From IMG/VR virus record IMGVR_UViG_2563366843_000006: a stretch of DNA of 10,451 bases; one strand, 5' to 3'. The notes beneath the pieces are model-generated. The model saw only the letters and a program-made list of their open reading frames with translations. It searched no databases and was not told where the DNA came from. This DNA is from a virus. Taxonomy: Duplodnaviria; Heunggongvirae; Uroviricota; Caudoviricetes. Numbering within the stretch: the first letter of the stretch is position 1; each line of letters begins with the position of its first letter. A program made the position numbers and the translations under genes. Shown in pieces: positions 1-10,451 of the stretch.

Positions 1-600
1 ATGCGTAAATTATGTGCTGTTATTCTGTCCGCAGTAGTCTGGCTGGTTGCCGCTGGTACGCCAGCAAGCGCAGCAGAGCATCAGTCCACACTAAGCGCCG
101 GGTATCTTCAGACCCATACTGATATGCCAGGCAGTGATGACCTGAAGGGCATTAACGTGAAATACCGTTATGAATTTACGGACACGCTGGGGCTGGTGAC
201 GTCATTCAGTTATGCCAATGCCAAAGATGAGCAAAAAACGCATTACAGCGATACCCGCTGGCATGAAGATTCAGTGCGTAACCGCTGGTTCAGCATGATG
301 GCGGGGCCATCTGTACGCGTGAATGAATGGTTCAGTGCTTATGCGATGGCAGGTGTGGCTTACAGCCGTGTTTCGACTTTTTCCGGGGATTATCTCCGCG
401 TAACTGACAGCAAGGGGAAAACGCACGATGTGCTGACCGGAAGTGATGACGGTCGCCACAGCAACACGTCTCTGGCGTGGGGGGCTGGCGTGCAGTTTAA
501 CCCGACCGAATCCGTGGCCATTGATATTGCTTATGAAGGCTCCGGCAGTGGTGACTGGCGCACTGACGGTTTCATCGTGGGTGTCGGTTATAAATTCTGA
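1..600 (+). CDS. lom: Outer membrane protein Lom (Ail/Lom/PagC-family beta-barrel), prophage moron
   Basis: 199-aa ORF with an N-terminal signal peptide (MRKLCAVILSAVVWLVAAGTPASA/AEH), amphipathic beta-strand pattern and C-terminal Phe (GVGYKF). Closely matches my recollection of phage lambda Lom. Lies immediately upstream of stf as in lambda and is followed by an intrinsic terminator. Confidence 0.9.
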   Translation: MRKLCAVILSAVVWLVAAGTPASAAEHQSTLSAGYLQTHTDMPGSDDLKGINVKYRYEFTDTLGLVTSFSYANAKDEQKTHYSDTRWHEDSVRNRWFSMMAGPSVRVNEWFSAYAMAGVAYSRVSTFSGDYLRVTDSKGKTHDVLTGSDDGRHSNTSLAWGAGVQFNPTESVAIDIAYEGSGSGDWRTDGFIVGVGYKF

Positions 601-653: not shown

Positions 654-664
654 GTGGAGTGGAT

Positions 665-3040
665 ATGGCAGCAGTAAAAATCTCAGGTGTGCTGAAAGAT
701 GGTGCGGGAAAACCAATACAGAACTGCACTATTCAACTGAAGGCAAAGCGTAACAGCACCACGGTACTGGTGAACACGGTGGCCTCTGAAAATCCGGATG
801 AAGCCGGGCGTTACAGCATGGATGTTGAGTATGGCCAGTACAGCGTCATCCTGCTGGTTGAAGGTTTTCCGCCTTCACATGCCGGGACCATTACCGTCTA
901 TGAAGGCTCCAGACCAGGTACGCTGAATGATTTTCTCGGTGCCATGACGGAAGAGGATGTCATGCCGGAGGCATTGCGTCGTTTTGAGGCAATGGTGGAA
1001 GAAGTGGCACGCAACGCCGAAGCCGCCTCTCAGAGCGCAGCGGCGGCAAAGAAATCCGAAACTGCAGCGGCATCATCGAAGAACGCGGCGAAAACCTCAG
1101 AAACGAATGCAGCTAACAGCGCACAGGCGGCAGCGACCTCACAGACTGCATCGGCAAACTCCGCGACAGCAGCCAAAAAATCAGAAACCAATGCGAAAAA
1201 CAGCGAGACAGCCGCAAAGACGAGCGAAACCAACGCAAAGTCCAGCCAGACGGCAGCGAAAACCAGCGAAACGAATGCCAAAGCCAGTGAAACTGCGGCG
1301 AAAAACAGCCAGGATGCAGCGGCCCAAAGCGAGAGTGCCGCAGCTGGTTCTGCGACTTCAGCAGCTGGATCAGCAACTGCTGCGGCTAACAGCCAGAAAG
1401 CTGCGAAGACGAGTGAAACCAACGCAAAGTCCAGCCAGACGGCAGCGAAAACCAGCGAAACGAATGCCAAAGCCAGTGAAACTGCGGCGAAAAGCAGTCA
1501 GGATGCAGCAGCCGAAAGCGAGAGTGCTGCAGCTGGCTCTGCAAGCGCGGCGGCTGCTTCTGCCACTGCATCAGCCAACAGTCAAAAAGCTGCAAAAACC
1601 AGTGAAACCAACGCAAAGGCGAGCGAGACTGCGGCGGCTAACTCGGCGAAAGCATCCGCTGCAAGCCAGACGGCTGCAAAAGCAAGTGAAGACGCAGCCA
1701 GAGAGTATGCAAGCCAGGCTGCGGAGCCGTATAAACAAGTATTGCAGCCGCTTCCCGATGTGTGGATACCGTTTAACGATTCACTGGATATGATTACGGG
1801 CTTTTCGCCGTCATATAAAAAGATTGTTATTGGTGATGATGAAATAACGATGCCTGGCGATAAGGTTGTAAAGTTTAAACGCGCATCAAAAGCAACTTAC
1901 ATTAATAAATCTGGTGTGCTGACAGAGGCTGCCATTGACGAGCCACGGTTTGAACGTGATGGCCTGCTTATTGAGGGGCAAAGAACAAACTACATGCTCA
2001 ATTCGGAAAACCCTGCCAGTTGGGGGCGATCGTCAAATATGGATGTGCCCGAAACAGGGACGGATAGTTTTGGTTTTACCTATGGAAAGTTTGTCTGCAA
2101 CGATTCTCTGATTGGGCAAACCTCAGCCATTAATATGGCATCAATTGCTGCAACAAAGTCAGTTGATGTCTCAGGCGATAATAAACACGTGACAACCTCA
2201 TGTCGTTTTAAAACAGAACTGCAGGTAAGGTTGCGTATCCGGTTTGATAAATATGACGGTAGCGCAACAACTTTTCTTGGTGATGCGTATATTGATACAC
2301 AAACGCTTGAAATTAATATGACAGGCGGTGCTGCCTCAAGGATTACTGCGAGAGTCAGAAAGGACGAAGCTACCGGATGGATTTTTGCAGAGGCAACAAT
2401 TCAGGCAATTGATGGGGAGCTAAAAATAGGCTCTCAGATACAGTATTCTCCTAAGCAGAGCGGGGCAACCGTATCTGGTGACTATATTTATCTGGCCACC
2501 CCACAAGTAGAAGATGGGCCTTGTGTATCATCTTTTATTATATCAGGAGCGACGGCGGCGACCCGCGCAAGCGATATAGTTACAGTTCCAATTAAGAATA
2601 ATCTTTATAATCTTCCTTTTACGGTTCTTTGTGAGGTACATAAGAACTGGTATAAAACGCCAAATGCAGCGCCACGTGTTTTTGATACCGGCGGTCATCA
2701 AACCGGAGCGGCTATTATTCTTGGCTTCGGTCGTTCAACAGATTACGACGGATTTCCTTATTGCGATATTGGAGGAGCTAACAGACGGGTAAACGAAAAC
2801 GCATCGCTTGAAAAAATGGTTATGGGGATGCGTGTAAAGTCAGAGCAGTCTACGTGCTCAGTAAGTAACGGGCATATATCCAGCGAAACAAAAACCACAT
2901 GGTCCTGTATTCAGAACACCGCAATTATCCGTATTGGAGGCCAGACTACAGCCGGGTTACGTCATTTATTTGGTCATGTCAGGAATTTCAGAATATGGCA
3001 CAAGGCATTGACTGATGCTCAGGTGGGGGAGTCAATCTAA
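665..3040 (+). CDS. stf: Side tail fibre protein (lambda Stf-like N-terminal anchor, Ala/Ser/Thr-rich repetitive shaft, divergent C-terminal receptor-binding region)
   Basis: Long ORF (track 659-3040 from GTG). ATG at 665 is preferred because GGAG at 656-659 sits 5 nt upstream. N-terminus MAAVKISGVLKDGAGKPIQNCTIQLKAKRNSTTVLVNT... matches my recollection of lambda Stf. Central KTSETNAK-type repeats. The C-terminal ~430 aa is more AT-rich and ends ...LRHLFGHVRNFRIWHKALTDAQVGESI, reminiscent of a LamG/concanavalin-like lectin fold (tentative). Confidence 0.85.
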   Translation: MAAVKISGVLKDGAGKPIQNCTIQLKAKRNSTTVLVNTVASENPDEAGRYSMDVEYGQYSVILLVEGFPPSHAGTITVYEGSRPGTLNDFLGAMTEEDVMPEALRRFEAMVEEVARNAEAASQSAAAAKKSETAAASSKNAAKTSETNAANSAQAAATSQTASANSATAAKKSETNAKNSETAAKTSETNAKSSQTAAKTSETNAKASETAAKNSQDAAAQSESAAAGSATSAAGSATAAANSQKAAKTSETNAKSSQTAAKTSETNAKASETAAKSSQDAAAESESAAAGSASAAAASATASANSQKAAKTSETNAKASETAAANSAKASAASQTAAKASEDAAREYASQAAEPYKQVLQPLPDVWIPFNDSLDMITGFSPSYKKIVIGDDEITMPGDKVVKFKRASKATYINKSGVLTEAAIDEPRFERDGLLIEGQRTNYMLNSENPASWGRSSNMDVPETGTDSFGFTYGKFVCNDSLIGQTSAINMASIAATKSVDVSGDNKHVTTSCRFKTELQVRLRIRFDKYDGSATTFLGDAYIDTQTLEINMTGGAASRITARVRKDEATGWIFAEATIQAIDGELKIGSQIQYSPKQSGATVSGDYIYLATPQVEDGPCVSSFIISGATAATRASDIVTVPIKNNLYNLPFTVLCEVHKNWYKTPNAAPRVFDTGGHQTGAAIILGFGRSTDYDGFPYCDIGGANRRVNENASLEKMVMGMRVKSEQSTCSVSNGHISSETKTTWSCIQNTAIIRIGGQTTAGLRHLFGHVRNFRIWHKALTDAQVGESI
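1211..1623. repeat. In-frame tandem duplication inside stf, period 189 bp (63 aa), about 2.2 copies, embedded in a wider field of shorter KTSETNAK-coding repeats (about 1040-1690)
   Basis: Near-identical blocks: CAACGCAAAGTCCAGCCAGACGGCAGCGAAAACCAGCGAAACGAATGCCAAAGCCAGTGAAACTGCGGCGAAAA starts at 1231 and again at 1420; a third partial unit begins near 1610. Confidence 0.75.
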
Positions 3041-3321
3041 TGAAAGATTTAACACTCAAATTTGCCGACAGGGCCGACTTTTCGGCCTTTATGGATAGCA
3101 CTGGCTATTATGATGACGAGTCGATGCAGGATGATATTCTTATCGACGTGATAGGTAACGTGTACAAAGAAACCGGAGAACTGACTGAAGATGGCGAACC
3201 GGTATGTGTTAAGGAAGACGGATATTTTGTAAACGTGCGCATCATTAATGATTCGCAAATATCGTCATTATTCGATGAATACGTGGTTGCTGTTGAGCAT
3301 CAACTTCGTGGCTGGATGTGA
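3040..3321 (+). CDS. Hypothetical small acidic protein (93 aa), translationally coupled to stf; possibly tail-fibre associated
   Basis: ATG at 3040 overlaps the stf stop TAA (3038-3040) by 1 nt; GGGGGAG 8 nt upstream. Asp/Glu-rich, no TM segment. Function not recognisable by eye. Confidence 0.55.
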   Translation: MKDLTLKFADRADFSAFMDSTGYYDDESMQDDILIDVIGNVYKETGELTEDGEPVCVKEDGYFVNVRIINDSQISSLFDEYVVAVEHQLRGWM

Positions 3322-3330
3322 GGAAGAAAA

Positions 3331-4371
3331 ATGGCTACATCGACAGTAATTCCTGATGACATCAAAACGCTAAAATCCGACGTTAGCAAATTAAAAAACG
3401 ATCAAGGAAGCTACGCAACAAAATTATATGTAGACAGCAAAGATGAAATCGTTGGTGACTGGTCTGCTTCATGGTATCAGCAGGTATTGCCAACTAGCGG
3501 AGCTATATTTGGGAGAAAACTCCGCTCAACTCACAGGACGGCAGGTGTTGAGGATGCGTATTGCGAACTATACCTCAAAAAATGGATAGACAGTCCAGGT
3601 AACGCAATGGCGCGCCTTAACCTGAACGATAACGGGACAAACATTTGCTGGGACTTTACCAACCTTTATGGCGGTACGATGATTTTTCCCGGTGACAGCG
3701 GATACCTCAAAATGGGTAACTGCCTTATGTCATACAGCAAGCGTGGAAGTAGCGCGCTTATTAAATTTGATTACACCGACACATTACAGATCAAATATGC
3801 CAATCATGGGTCAACCATGACATTAAACACACAGGGAACCGCTTATGCTGGTGTTACTGCTCAATTGTGGGGCAACTCCAGCCGTCCTGTTGTTTATGAA
3901 GTCGGTGTTGATGGTGGCGCTTATATGTTCTATGCGCAGAAAAATACCGATAACACCTATATGTTAAGCGTTAATGGTGCATGTCATGCCACCGCATTTA
4001 ACCAGCATTCCGACCGGGATCTGAAAGACAACATTCAGGTGATCGATAATGCAACCGACCGCATCCGTAAAATGAACGGCTATACATACACGCTTAAAGA
4101 AAACGGTATGCCCTATGCTGGTGTCATTGCACAGGAAGCTCTGGAAGCAATCCCAGAAGTTGTAGGTTCCGCAATGAAATATCAGGACGGTGCGAGCGGA
4201 TCGGAAGGTGAAGAAGGTGAACGTTATTACACAGTAGATCATTCTGGTGTTACTGGCTTGCTTGTTCAGGTAGCCAGAGAGTCAGACGACAGGATAACAG
4301 CACTGGAAGAAGAAAACGCAGAATTAAGACAAAGATTATCTGCAATTGAGGCGGCGCTTGCGTCTAAATAA
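3331..4371 (+). CDS. Tail fibre/tailspike-like protein with C-terminal intramolecular chaperone auto-processing domain (peptidase S74-like)
   Basis: 346-aa ORF with AGGAAG SD 4 nt upstream. The C-terminal ~115 aa (SDRDLKDNIQVIDNATDRIRKMNGYTYTLKENGMPYAGVIAQEALEAIPEVV...YYTVDHSGVTGLLVQVARESDDRITALEEENAELRQRLSAIEAAL) matches the pattern of the chaperone domain of phage endosialidases and T5 L-shaped fibre pb1: Ser-Asp at the expected autocleavage point, a VIAQE...PE segment, and a terminal coiled coil. Confidence 0.8.
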   Translation: MATSTVIPDDIKTLKSDVSKLKNDQGSYATKLYVDSKDEIVGDWSASWYQQVLPTSGAIFGRKLRSTHRTAGVEDAYCELYLKKWIDSPGNAMARLNLNDNGTNICWDFTNLYGGTMIFPGDSGYLKMGNCLMSYSKRGSSALIKFDYTDTLQIKYANHGSTMTLNTQGTAYAGVTAQLWGNSSRPVVYEVGVDGGAYMFYAQKNTDNTYMLSVNGACHATAFNQHSDRDLKDNIQVIDNATDRIRKMNGYTYTLKENGMPYAGVIAQEALEAIPEVVGSAMKYQDGASGSEGEEGERYYTVDHSGVTGLLVQVARESDDRITALEEENAELRQRLSAIEAALASK

Positions 4372-4413: not shown

Positions 4414-4701
4414 ATGGATATAACACCTTTCCTTCATGCGCTTTGTGCTGTGGCTGCGCAGCTACTGATTGGTCTTTTTACCGGAAACTGGGCTTACGGG
4501 GCGATAGCCGGTTGTACGTTCTTCATTGCTCGTGAACATACCCAGGCAGAATATCGCTGGATTGAAATGTTCGGGCATGGCAAGCGTATGAATATGCCGT
4601 GGTGGGGTGGTTTTGATCCACGCGTGTGGGATGTAGGAAGCCTTATGGATTTTTCTGTGCCGGTGGTGGCGTGTCTGCTGGTCTGGCTGTTTATCCGTTA
4701 A
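4414..4701 (+). CDS. Small predicted inner-membrane protein (about 96 aa), unknown function
   Basis: ORF in track (4399-4701 from TTG). ATG at 4414 preferred because AGGA at 4405-4408 sits 5 nt upstream. Hydrophobic segments FLHALCAVAAQLLIGLFTGNWAYGAIAGCTFFIA and SVPVVACLLVWLFI suggest 2-3 TM helices. Confidence 0.6.
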   Translation: MDITPFLHALCAVAAQLLIGLFTGNWAYGAIAGCTFFIAREHTQAEYRWIEMFGHGKRMNMPWWGGFDPRVWDVGSLMDFSVPVVACLLVWLFIR

Positions 4702-4850
4702 ACATAAAAAGCCGCAGCAACTTGTCATGGCAGAATACTGCGGCTGGCTGGTGAACTTCCGATAGTGCGAGTATTGAATGATTTCCAGCCATTACTGATT
4801 TTACGCATTTTTTGCATGAGAGGATTTGCACCTGCTCTCACAGACCATCT

Positions 4851-4927
4851 ATGACTGTACGCCACTATCTCTAGGGCTGCTATGTGCTGTGAGTTCAACC
4901 AATGTACGAACAGCCAGAAGCGGACAA
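4851..4927. repeat. Left copy of an imperfect inverted repeat bracketing the AT-rich cargo operon (core TATGTGCTGTGAGTTCAA at 4881-4898)
   Basis: Reverse complement of 8344-8410 aligns by hand with an 18/18 identical core plus flanks of about 21/29 and partial matches beyond, with one ~9-nt indel. Confidence 0.65.
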
Positions 4928-5037
4928 ATGATGACAAACTATATGCTCATCAACGTAGAGTAAGCCACTCAGTTGATGATGGGAGTGGGTTGCCTGCTGC
5001 CATCACTATTGTCGATTCTTAAGTGTACGCACTCTAA

Positions 5038-5068
5038 TTTACAGTTGCTTCATAGCGTAAAATATGAT
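5038..5068 (+). promoter_or_regulatory. Candidate sigma70-like promoter for the cargo operon (TTTACA ... TATGAT); weak, with non-optimal 19-nt spacer
   Basis: -35-like TTTACA at 5038-5043 and -10-like TATGAT at 5063-5068, about 90 nt upstream of the first ATG. Judged by eye only. Confidence 0.2.
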
Positions 5069-5157
5069 TTAAGATCAAAGACGTTTACATCTCGTACCTC
5101 ACAAGCAGCTTTTACTTGCTGAGGGCGGTAGCGTTTCTATTATTATCTCAAATCAAT

Positions 5158-6150
5158 ATGGATAATGTAATGAGTGAAACTAAACACATATCTGAAATGG
5201 CAGAAAGGGTGGCAAATAATTTATTCTCAATTTTTAAATGGAAAAGGAAGATTGCTTCCGATTTCAGTTGGGATTGTGTAAGCCCTGATGAACATGGAGG
5301 AAAAAAAGATCATCCGTCTGATTGCGTTTTTTATTACAGAGATCCCTATGATAATGAAGTTAAATATATTAATACTGATCTTAAGAGTTATGCGAAAGGC
5401 TCAATAACAAAAGAGCAAATTAATAAAGCAATCAGTTCTCTTTCCTATGCAACGAATTGCGCACCATATAATGATAATTGGAAAAGGTTATTTAAACCAG
5501 AAGGGAATTGGTCTGTAATAGGTATGCTGTTTGTTTATAATCATTGCGGTGAATATAATGGGGACTTTAATGAAATAGTTAAGGCGGTTGAAAATGATGT
5601 CAATCATTTGGATAATGAAAAAATGATATATATTTTCTCCCCAGATAGAATTAGAATATTAAATAGTATTGCTAATGATATCAATGTAATGATAGGGAAA
5701 GAAGAATTACCGTCTAAAAATCATTTTAGCTTCTTTCATCCCAATGAGATATTAACAAAAAATCATTTCAACCATGATTATTCTGAGCCAGCAACTATTA
5801 ATGTTCTTTCTTCACCTTGGATTATAATTAAGCATGCAGATTGTGAGAATGAAAAGGCAGGCTATTTAATATATTATACTAAAGATGGTTCAGAAGATGA
5901 CGAATTTGACTATTTTATTGATGCTCTAAGCTATTACCAAATAATCAATAATACAAGTAATGTCAGAATCAAATTAACAATAAAAAATGAATTTGCAGCA
6001 AGTAATCTTTTAAACTCAATTAGTAAATACTATCAGTCTCTCGGTCGTACCGAAAAAGAATCAATGCAAATCGCCAATACAATGGTAAAAGGTACTATTG
6101 ATTTGGTTACACCACAGTTTTCTGCTAATGAAATTGGAGTTTTACCATGA
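5158..6150 (+). CDS. Hypothetical protein A of AT-rich three-gene operon (about 331 aa); N-terminal region has a tentative PD-(D/E)xK nuclease-like motif arrangement
   Basis: Long ORF in a roughly 30% G+C region; track ORF 5116-6150 begins at TTG. First ATG is at 5158, alternative at 5170; neither has a strong SD. Stop TGA overlaps the start of gene B (ATGA at 6147-6150). Asn/Lys/Ile/Tyr-rich, no TM or signal peptide. Confidence 0.75.
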   Translation: MDNVMSETKHISEMAERVANNLFSIFKWKRKIASDFSWDCVSPDEHGGKKDHPSDCVFYYRDPYDNEVKYINTDLKSYAKGSITKEQINKAISSLSYATNCAPYNDNWKRLFKPEGNWSVIGMLFVYNHCGEYNGDFNEIVKAVENDVNHLDNEKMIYIFSPDRIRILNSIANDINVMIGKEELPSKNHFSFFHPNEILTKNHFNHDYSEPATINVLSSPWIIIKHADCENEKAGYLIYYTKDGSEDDEFDYFIDALSYYQIINNTSNVRIKLTIKNEFAASNLLNSISKYYQSLGRTEKESMQIANTMVKGTIDLVTPQFSANEIGVLP

Positions 6151-7253
6151 GTAATCCTGAGAAAAAATTTGGTCATAGTATTTACTACATGAACGATCAA
6201 AATATTAGGGATGGTTTACTAGCGCAGAAAGTTAAAGCATCACATTTGATAAAAATTTTAAAAGATCGCAACATTTTAGTATCACCTCTATCTTCAAAAG
6301 AAGAACTGATAAACATGTTAAAGTTTATCAGATTCGATTATTATGATTATGTTTATTTATCATCAATTCTTGCAAATCAAGATAAAAAAGAAAGTAAGTC
6401 AAGTATTGATATAGATAAGAAAGTCACTGCTAAGCAAATATTAAGTACGTTTGAGTCGATTAAAGGAGTGTTAGAAGCTCGTCAAATTACAGCCGAGGTT
6501 TCTAAACAAAACAGTAAAAAAATAACTATCAACTTTGAGTATGTTGAGTTTGATCATTCGAAACCACCTATGCGTCAAAAATCATTCCGTAAAGGGGTAG
6601 TTGAATGTGATATAACTGCTACAGGTGCGATGCTTAATTATCCAGCAAATAAAGTTGGGGCAATAATAAAAGACCATTTAATCACACAACTTTCCAAAAA
6701 GTTAGATACTGAATTGAAGCCAATCGAATTTGATTTTGAGAACTCCAGTGTTGCAACTAGAAATAATTTCTTCCTTAGTGTAATCAATAATGTTGAAAAG
6801 TATGAAGTATACGATGTTGTCACTGTGGCAGTTAAGAAGATAGAAGAGAAAAAAGGAAAGGAAAGCTCCTCGTCAGCGGATTCAGACAATGATTCGGTAG
6901 GGGAAGCATTTACTGGAGAAGTTAGAAACGCCATTCTACGCGGAAATCAGATTTTAACTTCAAAAGTATACAGTGGGTTAAATACAGGGAATTATTATAT
7001 TTATAAAATTACTTGGAAGATTAGAGAAATAATTCCGGGCTTGGGATCTGAACAATCTGATTGTTATACGGTTGAGATTGAGTTTAGTGATAAAGATAAG
7101 GCTAAAGGACTAAAGTATTGTGTTAAAACTGTTCAGCGATTCTCCTCAAAAAATAGACTGAATGTTACAACTGAAAATCCTTTAAAAAATGAGCAAGAAA
7201 AATTAGGAAAGCTCATTTATAAAACAGCCCTAGATGTCTATTCTAAAATATAA
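6147..7253 (+). CDS. Hypothetical protein B of AT-rich three-gene operon (368 aa); two regions separated by a Ser/Asp-rich acidic linker
   Basis: ATG at 6147 with GGAG SD at 6136-6139 (7-nt spacing), overlapping the gene A stop. No recognisable catalytic signature by eye; linker KKGKESSSSADSDNDSVGEAF at about 6850-6910. Confidence 0.8.
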   Translation: MSNPEKKFGHSIYYMNDQNIRDGLLAQKVKASHLIKILKDRNILVSPLSSKEELINMLKFIRFDYYDYVYLSSILANQDKKESKSSIDIDKKVTAKQILSTFESIKGVLEARQITAEVSKQNSKKITINFEYVEFDHSKPPMRQKSFRKGVVECDITATGAMLNYPANKVGAIIKDHLITQLSKKLDTELKPIEFDFENSSVATRNNFFLSVINNVEKYEVYDVVTVAVKKIEEKKGKESSSSADSDNDSVGEAFTGEVRNAILRGNQILTSKVYSGLNTGNYYIYKITWKIREIIPGLGSEQSDCYTVEIEFSDKDKAKGLKYCVKTVQRFSSKNRLNVTTENPLKNEQEKLGKLIYKTALDVYSKI

Positions 7254-7268
7254 ATGGGGGATGGCATT

Positions 7269-7946
7269 ATGGAAAAAAGAATCGTTTTTTATGATTTTGA
7301 AACTCCTTTTAATCAGGAGCAAATCAGCAAAAGATTGATTGAAAACCAATTTACAAAAGATGCGATCTCAGGTTTTAGTTTACAGAAAAATAATAGTACT
7401 GGGATTTACTTCCGACATATTAAAAAGATTATTAACATTGACGTTGTGTTAACACCTTTTGGTGAAGAATATGAAAATACCACAATCGCCTACGCTACCA
7501 ATGAGGTGAAAATAACTGATAAGTCTCTTCGTATAATTAACCCATCTAGAACACTTGCTCCCTTTCGAACAGATTTGGTGAAGTCTCTAGACTTTCAGTG
7601 CACTATAAGTAATAAGAATATAGAATTAAGTCCACTATTGTTATCTTTGAGAGAAAGGAATGTTAATATCAACTTGACTGATATTGAACTTACTACATAT
7701 GACCTCTTTAAGGATTCTCGAGTTAAAATGGTCATTTCTTCTAATAGTGATTTAATTGGCAAAGCAGAATCCTATTTAAATAATGTTAAGTCCAACATCA
7801 CAAAAATAGGTTTTTCTTTATTGTTTAATGGTGATTATTATTTTGTTGAAATTGGTTGTAAAGGTTCATTGAAAATATCAGGGGATTTAATAGAGGATAA
7901 TTTGGAATATTATATTATTAATGAAATTCTATCTTTAGATGCTTAA
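7269..7946 (+). CDS. Hypothetical protein C of AT-rich three-gene operon (225 aa from ATG 7269; 230 aa if ATG 7254 is used)
   Basis: ORF directly abutting the gene B stop (TAA 7251-7253). GGGGGA at 7256-7261 is 7 nt upstream of ATG 7269, favouring that start. AT-rich codon usage like A and B; followed by a terminator at 8027-8057. Confidence 0.75.
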   Translation: MEKRIVFYDFETPFNQEQISKRLIENQFTKDAISGFSLQKNNSTGIYFRHIKKIINIDVVLTPFGEEYENTTIAYATNEVKITDKSLRIINPSRTLAPFRTDLVKSLDFQCTISNKNIELSPLLLSLRERNVNINLTDIELTTYDLFKDSRVKMVISSNSDLIGKAESYLNNVKSNITKIGFSLLFNGDYYFVEIGCKGSLKISGDLIEDNLEYYIINEILSLDA

Positions 7947-8026
7947 CCGCCTTGCTGTTGTGGGGGAAGTTTGAAAGTTAATATTTATTAACAAACATAT
8001 TGTTTTTATACCGTTTTTTAAAAAAA

Positions 8027-8057
8027 AGAGTCGAGACTTAAAGCGGCTCTTTTTTTA
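8027..8057 (+). terminator. Intrinsic terminator closing the three-gene operon (possibly bidirectional)
   Basis: Stem AGAGTCG (8027-8033) / CGGCTCT (8044-8050) including one G-U pair, 10-nt loop, then TTTTTTT (8051-8057); A-tract immediately upstream. Confidence 0.5.
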
Positions 8058-8343
8058 TTAGTTGTTGGGTTGAATTGAATTTTAAAATAAGTTCCTGCAA
8101 TAAGAACGAACCAAGTAAACGATCTGGAAATTATTAATCTTTTCCTCCCGATGAAGATTCTTCTGAGTGCGGATCAAAGTAACTTAACGTTACTTTCCTC
8201 ACCAACACAAAGTAAAAAGGTATTTTTTAAATGTAAAATAGTCAAATCCGACGAAAAGTATAAATTAATATACTTGATTTGTTCCTGTTATTTCCTGGCC
8301 AACCTGCAACAATTGGAAGTGGCAACTAAAATTTGCTATGTAT

Positions 8344-8410
8344 ATGTTCGCTTGTCGCTGTGCGTCCATCGATTGAACTCACAGCACATAACAGACATTC
8401 ACTACAGTTA
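8344..8410. repeat. Right copy of the imperfect inverted repeat bracketing the cargo operon (core TTGAACTCACAGCACATA at 8373-8390, the reverse complement of 4881-4898)
   Basis: See left copy. The two copies face each other across about 3.4 kb containing only the three AT-rich genes and their terminator. Confidence 0.65.
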
Positions 8411-8762
8411 TGGTAGAAGGTATGCATGCTGGGTGGGGAAAGTATGAAGGAAAAGAAGACTGCTGCGCCGTTTGTCGTCACATTTATCTTCATTGGCTAT
8501 GCAAGTCGTAATACAAGGTGGGACAAAACAGAGACACATAAGGTCTCACAAAGGTCTGCAAGGCCTCACATGTATTGAGATGTTAATAAAATGTAGACTT
8601 GTAATTTGGATATAAATGGTAGAGAAAACCTTTCCCCAAAATAAAAACGAACGTCAATGAAATCAAACGGTTGAATAAAGTTGATTTTGGCTAATAAAAA
8701 AACAATAAAATAATTTTTATCATTAAATATCAATGACTTGAACTTAATGTTTTTATATACTG

Positions 8763-8924
8763 CTGCGCCATATGGGCTGGACTGAAGCCGCAGACTTGAT
8801 TGTTAAAGGTATGGAAGGCGCAATCAATGCGAAGACCGTAACCTATGATTTCGAACGTCTGATGGAAGGTGCTAAACTGCTGAAATGCAGCGAGTTTGGT
8901 GATGCGATCATCAAGAACATGTAA
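8763..8924 (+). pseudogene. icd: Orphan 3' fragment of isocitrate dehydrogenase gene (last ~54 codons, icdC-like), marking the prophage/host junction (attR side)
   Basis: In-frame translation [53 protein letters not shown] matches my recollection of the E. coli Icd C-terminus. No icd sequence upstream, where unrelated AT-rich DNA begins at about 8760. Followed by a strong terminator. Confidence 0.85.
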
Positions 8925-8947
8925 TTACTACATGTGTTAAATATTGT

Positions 8948-8979
8948 AACGGGCGTATAACACGCCCGTTGTTTTATTT
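8948..8979 (+). terminator. icd intrinsic terminator (could also serve convergent iraM)
   Basis: Perfect 9-bp stem AACGGGCGT (8948-8956) / ACGCCCGTT (8962-8970), loop ATAAC, then GTTTTATTT. Confidence 0.75.
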
Positions 8980-9026
8980 ATGTGGATATTATTAATATCA
9001 TGTCGAGAATATTTATATGAAGGCCA

Positions 9027-9350
9027 TTACTTGAGTCCATATGGGCATATTTTTATAATACAACTATTATGTAAACATTTATTTGTTATTTCGCTTTCTC
9101 CTGGAGGACACTCTTGACTGCTTTTGAGTAAACTCCATAAATTCTTGTTGAATGGTGCAATGTTATAAATAGTAATAGGATATTCTTTATCCTCAAGGAT
9201 AATACCAGGCTTAACCGGTGTAAATATACTTCCAGGAGGAAGAAATATAGTAGATTGATACCAGATGATCATTTTCATATCACCCCATATGGCTGAAAAA
9301 GATATGCCGCATGTAGGTTGAATTACCGTGTCAATTACTACCCACTTCAT
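9027..9350 (-). CDS. iraM: Anti-adaptor protein IraM (RssB inhibitor stabilising RpoS)
   Basis: 107-aa [46 protein letters not shown]...CPYGLK closely matches my recollection of E. coli IraM (YcgW). Located next to the icd remnant as in E. coli K-12; long AT-rich upstream region. Confidence 0.8.
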
Positions 9351-9788
9351 TTGTTATGTCTTATCCCACGGTATTTAATATAGTTCATTTGGATGTTCAT
9401 TTCTTTATTTTGCATATGAGTATATTACCCTTCAAAAAAATAAATTAATTAAAACGATTGCTTATATAAAACAAAATTTAAAGCAAGTAATCTCAATAGA
9501 GATTAAACAAAATGAGATTTAGTGAAAACATTAAATCATTCACTTCGTTTTAGATTTGTTTAGTTAAAATGTTATACATTCAAATGACTGAACATCCTGT
9601 AATTAAAACATAGCCTTTATGCTACTTTGCGCTAATTTGCTAAACATTATGATTGGCCTTTTTATATAACGATAATGATGAATATAAGCATGACATGAGA
9701 ATAAGGTTTCAATTTTTGAGTTATATAGGAATGATTTAACCTGTTCCTGGCTAAAATACATATAACCGGATGATGACTAAACCAAAAC

Positions 9789-9840
9789 ACATGTGCGTTA
9801 AGTATTGAAACGGACGTATGGCACGCCCGTTGTTTTTATA
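9789..9840 (+). repeat. Degenerate second copy of the icd 3'-flank/terminator segment (direct repeat of 8930-8980)
   Basis: ACATGTG(C)GTTAAGTATTGAAACGGACGTATGGCACGCCCGTTGTTTTT aligns with ACATGTGTTAAATATTGTAACGGGCGTATAACACGCCCGTTGTTTTA at roughly 85% identity; the hairpin carries one stem mismatch (A9814). Confidence 0.6.
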
Positions 9841-10046
9841 AATATGTTAACCGTTATAAAATAACGTATAGAAAGTCAAGTAATCACATTTCAAATATCA
9901 ATTTGATAGTATTGATCTGGTGATTATTTATGGGTGGCAATAAAAAGATAGTATTACTCATCCATATGAATAGTCTCTGCACTTTTATTTCCATTATGCT
10001 AATGCCTTACTGAATTATGAAGTATTTTTTAAGCATCCAACTTTAG

Positions 10047-10451
10047 CTAGATTAATGGTTTATTATTTTCTACATCTTCAATATATAAAAGCGTATTATC
10101 AATGGCGTAGTAACTGCGTTTGTTATGATTAACATCAGTAACCCACCGGAAAACGCCCGCGTCTGCCAGTGTTGAACAGTATTCCCGAAATGTTGATTTT
10201 CCGCAAATATGAAGCAATGCGGCCTCTTTTATTTTAGCAGGGTTCTTGGTCGTACTAACTTTTAACAGGTTCCTGGTTCCTCTTAATAACAAAACCGTGT
10301 CATCGTGAGTAATAATTCTGATGTTATCCGTAGCCAGATAATAAATGTAATGTGCAATACGGTGATGTTTTAATTCTGAATAAAACCAGGAGAAGTTTTG
10401 CTCTTTTCTCACTTGCTCAAACATCTTTTGAAAAACAACAACCTGATCCAT
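10047..10451 (-). CDS. ycgX: Hypothetical protein, likely YcgX-like (DUF1398 family); start codon lies at the window edge
   Basis: 134-aa ORF with ATG at 10449-10451 (minus strand) and stop at 10047-10049. Assignment rests on synteny downstream of iraM in E. coli K-12 and on protein size; the sequence itself was not recognised with certainty. Confidence 0.5.
   Translation of the reverse strand: MDQVVVFQKMFEQVRKEQNFSWFYSELKHHRIAHYIYYLATDNIRIITHDDTVLLLRGTRNLLKVSTTKNPAKIKEAALLHICGKSTFREYCSTLADAGVFRWVTDVNHNKRSYYAIDNTLLYIEDVENNKPLI

Follow-up and report, generated by a model that had tools for sequence, protein, structure and literature searches.

Why does the 3' end of icd stand alone between phage DNA and iraM, where a lambda-like prophage ends on the right, and does this stranded gene end belong to the host or to the phage? 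The window analyzed here, a stretch of 10,451 nucleotides, is identical over its whole length (10451/10451) to part of scaffold KB733135.1, from the draft assembly GCA_000352705.1. An initial annotation of this DNA had proposed that the orphan 3' end of icd lies at the right-hand junction of a prophage inserted in this gene, and the icd tail, the host flank and the phage arm described below all support that proposal. We are highly confident that 8384-8980 represents the attR of a lambda-like prophage integrated in the 3' end of E. coli icd through a phage 21-type tyrosine integrase. The features of the window are collected in Table 1.

Table 1. Features of the window, from the prophage tail genes on the left to the host chromosome on the right.
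Feature	Position	Strand	Evidence
lom	1-600	+	Pfam Ail_Lom
Side tail fibre	659-3040	+	Pfam phage_tail_N; PHROG tail fibre families
Small ORF	3040-3321	+	Late-region end of prophage
Tail fibre with endosialidase-chaperone domain	3331-4371	+	Pfam Peptidase_S74; PHROG tail fibre families
Three-gene AT-rich cassette, 3HP-like (ORFs 5116-6150, 6147-7253, 7254-7946)	5116-7946	+	PADLOC profiles
P arm of attR (phage 21-type attP left arm), prophage right end	8384-8765	+	~91-95% identity to phage 21 and induced lambdoid phages
Int arm-type dodecamer CTTTCCCCAAAA (consensus YYTTCCCCAAAA)	8630-8641	+	Sole exact match in the window
IHF-consensus match AATCAAACGGTTG, candidate, in P arm; same in phage 21	8661-8673	+	Consensus match
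IHF-consensus match TATCAATGACTTG, second candidate, not conserved in phage 21; weak evidence	8728-8740	+	Consensus match
CTGCTG, phage version of icd codons 363-364 (host: ATGTTA)	8760-8765	+	Same in attP of phage 21, ev017 and Lambda_4C10
Stretch common to host attB and phage 21 attP, CGCCATATGGGCTGGACTGAAGCCGCAGAC; crossover interval	8766-8795	+	Identical in window, empty-site icd and phage 21 attP
Displaced icd 3' end, host-original (codons 365-416 and stop; K-12 icdC equivalent; non-functional fragment)	8766-8924	+	159/159 to empty-site icd, 151/159 to phage 21
icd intrinsic terminator, 11-pair hairpin and T-run	8946-8980	+	Hairpin search; same sequence in empty-site strain
iraM, first host gene right of the junction	9027-9350	-	Annotation of matching genomes

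Translation of 8757-8927 in frame yields the C-terminus of Icd (55 residues), and 8760-8924 reads in frame with icd through its final 54 codons and stop, followed by a terminator hairpin and then by iraM. When two full-length icd genes, those of K-12 and WP4-S18-ESBL-07, were compared with the window by BLASTN, the sole match was icd nt 1093-1251 of 1251, which aligns to 8766-8924 without any mismatch to the WP4-S18-ESBL-07 gene (159/159, 100%, E=2.6e-80). At the protein level, Icd residues 362-416 are likewise the sole part present, and neither the nucleotide nor the protein search with these two full-length genes found the rest of icd anywhere in the window. The terminator hairpin (8946-8972) is G+C-rich, has 11 pairs and is followed by a T-run; shuffled sequences predict 0.6 terminator-like sites. 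Translation, BLASTN and the hairpin thus bear out the initial description of an orphan icd 3' end with its terminator and without upstream icd. The two C-terminal differences from K-12 Icd given in that description are real: D398E, which changes MDGAK to MEGAK, and E414K, which changes IIENM to IIKNM. The fragment itself also stands where the last ~54 codons had been placed (8757-8924), with the exception of 8757-8765, which is not host icd: ATA (8757-8759) is phage-arm sequence, and CTGCTG is the phage version of the two following codons. In other genomes, the matching feature carries the PGAP label of a partial isocitrate dehydrogenase pseudogene. On its right, many E. coli chromosomes match the host flank (8925-10451) at 100% identity, and the gene order beyond iraM, with ymgK, ymgL and ycgX, is that of E. 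coli chromosomes.

Concerning the left side of the junction, the DNA immediately upstream of the icd fragment has a GC content of 33-38% and is phage-derived, in agreement with the earlier remark that AT-rich prophage DNA directly precedes the fragment. The window is the right end of a lambda-like prophage, because lambda-type tail genes continue leftward on scaffold KB733135.1, where the end of the tape measure gene H is followed by M, L, K, I and J. A gap of 2210 N (4428-6637 of the scaffold segment compared) lies inside gpJ and ends 33 bases before the start of the window, so that the tail-tip gene is not fully assembled in the source record. We found no Rfam match in the window at the gathering threshold; absence of the small RNA C0293 is expected, since the C0293 of e14 sits on the attL side in K-12.

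The phage DNA that adjoins the icd fragment is closely related to the attachment site of phage 21. Region 8384-8930 aligns to phage 21 attP, represented by OL657228 (complete genome) and M61865 (int-xis-attP clone), with 91.8% identity over 545 nt (99% query coverage), and the same arm region is 90-95% identical to a series of induced lambdoid coliphages. In a global alignment of the P arm, 351/382 nt match phage 21. Most E. coli matches start at 8384/8387, which marks the left edge of the conserved module. The arm contains one Int arm-type dodecamer, identified with the consensus taken from the attP annotation of OL657228, at an offset of -294 nt from the icd stop that is equal in the P-arm copy of phage 21 and in the attR of strain 20. 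In phage 21, the left arm has one such site and three more closely follow the icd-like terminator, with a total span of 397 bp that fits the minimal phage 21 attP of 366-418 bp reportedly delimited by Wang et al. in 1997. Downstream of the terminator, the window has no match to the three P'-arm dodecamers, which both phage 21 attP and the attL of strain 20 contain. Presence of the left-arm dodecamer and absence of the P'-arm copies is therefore the arrangement expected of an attR. IHF-consensus matches, which may represent binding sites, number three in the whole window, two of them between the arm site and the core. We could not align the e14 arm of K-12 with the window anywhere upstream of the core. 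As judged from these alignments, the arm belongs to the phage 21 type rather than to that of e14. The original proposal of an e14 or phage 21-type site consequently holds for a prophage at the icd site and for the phage 21 type, supported by the global alignment and the arm site, and not for the e14 type, whose arm is unaligned.

One repeat within this arm deserves separate mention. Two copies of the 11-nt sequence ACTGCTGCGCC are present, one at 8459-8469 and the other at 8759-8769, with a spacing of exactly 300 bp; ~0.1 matches would be expected by chance. The sequence includes the beginning of the att core. The upstream copy lies within a 50-codon ORF (8426-8578) homologous to a 'putative membrane protein' of phage 21, which reads ACAGCTGCTTT at this place. 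We judged the duplication to be coincidental or lineage-specific. Its interpretation as a second att core or as the scar of a tandem prophage was ruled out, as the upstream copy lies within a small ORF that phage 21 has in conserved form, with no icd sequence after it.

The junction is widespread: a 201-bp probe made of arm and core (8600-8800) was covered, at coverage of at least 80%, in 1466 of 5426 complete E. coli genomes, with no genome at 100% and a best identity of 99.0%, and a longer probe (8300-9400) was covered in 486 complete E. coli genomes. Among complete genomes, the nearest to the window are GIMC1405 (96.8% identity, 84% coverage) and strain 20 (97.2%, 81%), which share its cargo cassette and have an identical P arm. 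Both also possess, to the left, an intact icd beside a 380-aa site-specific integrase and an excisionase, at a distance of ~31 kb in GIMC1405 and ~48 kb in strain 20, so that the initial prediction of an intact icd and int at the far left holds in these two genomes. The integrase of GIMC1405 is identical to phage 21 Int at 379/380 positions (99.7%) and has 60% identity to IntE of e14. The attL of these relatives includes the three right-arm dodecamers and an icd 3' end unlike the attR copy. The prophage of strain 20 is a complete lambda-like prophage; that of GIMC1405 is deleted and defective, with loss of the head genes and most tail genes, a partial J and a truncated stf. By analogy with these relatives, we strongly infer that the source genome would likewise harbour an intact icd and int at the left end of the prophage. 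Int in the source prophage could nevertheless be absent or damaged, since the record is a draft scaffold with an N gap in gpJ.

Which of the two possible icd copies is present in the window can be decided from a strain whose icd site is empty. In WP4-S18-ESBL-07, which shares the flank haplotype of the window, an intact icd directly precedes iraM. Compared base by base with this strain, the window is identical from 8766 onward, including the stop codon, terminator and flank, and is unrelated upstream of 8766. The copy of icd carried by phage 21 attP differs from the fragment at 8 positions, and leads into the three arm-site repeats and int, where the window has iraM. Host allele and phage 21 attP encode the same peptide (LLRHMG...IIKNM), so that only the DNA tells which copy this is. 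A reading of the fragment as the replacement 3' end supplied by the phage (P' arm) would draw on this shared peptide, with the protein alone being undecisive; it is highly improbable in view of the complete DNA match to the empty-site host allele, as opposed to 151/159 for phage 21, and of the host flank that lies downstream in place of the three P'-arm dodecamers and int. Since the match to the empty-site allele extends over all 159 positions and into an identical flank, the fragment is, on this nucleotide evidence, the host's original 3' end (B' arm) and the counterpart of K-12 icdC.

The origin of the junction as a whole can be weighed in the same manner. The cryptic prophage e14 of K-12, inserted by IntE, uses the same target gene at nearly the same position and leaves the layout icd ... 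icdC-iraM, which invites the reading of the window as an e14-type element. We give this very little credence: the sequence upstream of the core is unaligned with the K-12 e14 arm and matches phage 21 attP including the arm-site consensus, relatives with identical arms encode an integrase that hardly differs from phage 21 Int and has only 60% identity to IntE, and the genes of the window are lambda-type tail genes, lom and stf, with no e14 gene content. That the orphan fragment might be an artefact of assembly or scaffolding, or a chance similarity, could be suspected in a draft scaffold whose N gap ends so close to the window, but its probability is negligible, as the junction lies within contiguous sequence and is the same in 1466 complete genomes, and as the icd match is perfect over 159 positions with an E-value of 2.6e-80. 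Somewhat more room must be left for a decayed prophage whose left end (int, xis, even the icd junction at attL) has been deleted or rearranged, in which case the interpretation of the window as attR would still be right. GIMC1405 holds such a defective version, headless and with a partial J and a truncated stf, and the source scaffold has its assembly gap in J. However, both close relatives, even the deleted one, keep int, xis and an intact icd, the source scaffold displays a full set of lambda-type tail genes left of the window, and icd is a core metabolic gene that is intact in essentially all genomes searched; a fossil of this kind is accordingly unlikely.

Under the preferred reading, that of an attR generated by a phage 21-type integrase, the phage attP would bring its own copy of the icd 3' end (the last ~55 codons) together with a terminator, and Int would exchange strands in a short segment common to attP and attB, somewhere in 8766-8795. 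At the left end, the 5' part of the host icd would be joined to the phage 3' copy and icd would stay intact. At the right end, the 3' end of the host gene would be stranded and fused to the phage P arm, which would give the observed order of P arm (8384-8765), core, host icd tail (8766-8924), terminator and iraM.

The position of the exchange can be narrowed from the bases that distinguish host and phage. Diagnostic differences flank CGCCATATGGGCTGGACTGAAGCCGCAGAC at 8760, 8763 and 8765 on the left and at 8796 on the right. The last phage-specific base is 8765, and the first base that separates host from phage 21 is 8796, where the window has the T of the host and phage 21 a C; from there on, the sequence is host-type. 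Because these differences bracket the common stretch, strand exchange must have occurred within 8766-8795, provided that the host read ATGTTA before integration and that the attP was phage 21-like downstream of the core. If the ATGTTA assumption is removed, the interval becomes 8761-8795. The boundary initially suggested at about 8757-8769 is compatible with this result, and is now refined to the crossover interval and to the last phage-specific base. ATGTTA is found at codons 363-364 both in the empty-site host and in the attR of strain 1190, which has a 100% identical flank and a different prophage. The possibility that CTGCTG derives from a host allele reading ATGCTG, as in K-12, was considered and rejected: a synthetic query composed of the host B arm, ATGCTG and the 3' end of the window has no 100% match in the 5426 complete genomes, the best two having one mismatch each. 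As no exact ATGCTG allele was recovered and strains with identical flanks have ATGTTA, the phage origin of CTGCTG is retained.

The codons at the boundary between arm and core (8760-8765) are polymorphic among 21-type attP and attR, in lysogens and free phages alike. Free phages carry both CTGCTG and CTGTTA, the latter in the attP of Lambda_2E9, and attR sites with the same arms read CTGTTA in VCSW7, GIMC1405 and strain 20. These attR sites need no other exchange point, because free phages with a CTGTTA attP exist. The block of identity between attL and attR amounts to 16 bp in GIMC1405 and 28 bp in strain 20. In K-12 e14, it amounts to 11 bp, ATGCTGCGCCA, corresponding to 8760-8770 of the window. 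If e14 and 21-type Int exchange strands at one place, the overlap would centre on CGCCA (8766-8770).

Two further matches to the core lie in iraM. The core decamer CCATATGGGC (8768-8777) has one additional copy in direct orientation at 9037-9046, and a 20-nt inverted match to the core region, 80% complementary, is found at 9274-9293. Both probably reflect chance similarity around the palindrome CCATATGG.

The stranded icd tail has coding potential of its own, with an in-frame ATG at 8772 opening a 50-codon ORF; copies of this ORF in phage genomes form their own PHROG family, phrog_7588. The native terminator is retained as well. A weak promoter-like match (9/12) is located just upstream, at 8733-8761; promoter-like matches in the region are not in excess (7 versus 4.7 expected in shuffles), and we could not find any Shine-Dalgarno sequence for the ORF starting at 8772. 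Conservation of this ORF is fully explained by the origin of the fragment as attB/attP sequence. Expression of the tail in lysogens, to yield a micro-protein from the Icd C-terminus or an RNA that would affect Icd or icd expression, seems very doubtful.

The icd junction described here is of a type already known in kind and detail, and adds no new biology. The resemblance to phage 21 (OL657228 / M61865) extends to the P arm (~92%), the offset of the dodecamer, which is the same, and the core CTGCTGCGCCATATGGGCTGGACTGAAGCCGCAGAC, which is identical; the icd-like 165 bp and terminator follow the same logic, and the relatives of the window encode a practically identical Int. The differences are the cargo beside attP, which is sitABCD in phage 21 and a 3HP-like cassette in the window, an arm divergence of ~8%, and the nature of the site, which is a recombinant attR (P arm plus host B') and not an attP. 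Phage 21 attP and attR at icd are reportedly described in work from the Campbell laboratory, which PMC12803456 cites as its reference 55.

With e14 of K-12, the window shares the target gene and, within a few bases, the position, as well as an intact hybrid icd on the left and a displaced 165-bp 3' pseudogene beside iraM on the right. The arm is however unrelated, the integrase only 60% identical, and e14 a 15-kb element with other gene content. The e14 icd and icdC sequences contain 11-bp direct repeats (PMC4759930), e14 supplies the icd 3' end and leaves a pseudo-icd behind (PMC6379469), and its excision recombines icd with icdC (PMC13626634); passages of these three papers (PMC6379469, PMC4759930, PMC13626634) trace e14 at icd and icdC to Hill, Gray and Brody (1989). 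NC-SV, 50icd and other lambdoid prophages are lambda-like and occupy the phage 21 site in icd (PMC12803456, PMC10111431). By description this is the same icd site as in the window, with cargo that presumably differs.

The main value of the junction lies in annotation, as it fixes the right boundary of the prophage to within 30 bp. It also indicates that the feature annotated as 'partial isocitrate dehydrogenase' represents the displaced end of the host gene rather than a degraded paralogue. Precise excision is predicted to restore an icd ending in the exact sequence of the fragment. Finally, the junction places a small constraint on strand exchange by 21-type Int, which would take place to the right of icd codon 364.

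Between the tail fibre genes and attP, the prophage carries three adjacent and co-oriented genes with a GC content of 27-35%, whose products belong to PHROGs of unknown function. They match, in gene order, the PADLOC profiles Hp1, Hp2 and Hp3 (PDLC03004, PDLC03005 and PDLC03006) with E-values of 7.7e-61, 1.2e-27 and 4.1e-13. We take these PADLOC models to correspond to the 3HP system of Rousset et al., who reportedly validated it. In our Pfam scan, neither the three cargo proteins nor the ORF at 8151-8447 had a hit; a precomputed Pfam record exists for the first cassette protein on the source contig (PF26115, PDDEXK_GAPS4). From these profile matches, the prophage cargo probably encodes an anti-phage system of the 3HP type. 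The 98-codon ORF at 8151-8447 has no match in Pfam, PHROG or PADLOC.

The region from ~4700 to 8384, left of the conserved attP module that starts at ~8384, looks like a slot into which variable cargo is swapped, here with 3HP-like content. In phage 21 and Lambda_4C10, sitABCD occupies the position of the cassette, and for strain C4 the features listed under its match with the window include avs2 (Avs2). Between the cassette and the attP module lies an unannotated spacer (7947-8384), with a hairpin at 8021-8056 that has a 13-nt A-run and T-run and resembles a bidirectional terminator.

A last observation concerns the side tail fibre gene (659-3040). Positions 1000-1800 show a strong excess of A over T with a skew of up to 0.67, at a GC content of 55-57%. 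This A-skewed stretch corresponds to a long series of imperfect repeats rich in Ala, Ser, Thr, Lys and Glu (…AAKTSETNAKSSQTAAKTSETNAKASETAAK…), located in the N-terminal third of the side tail fibre.
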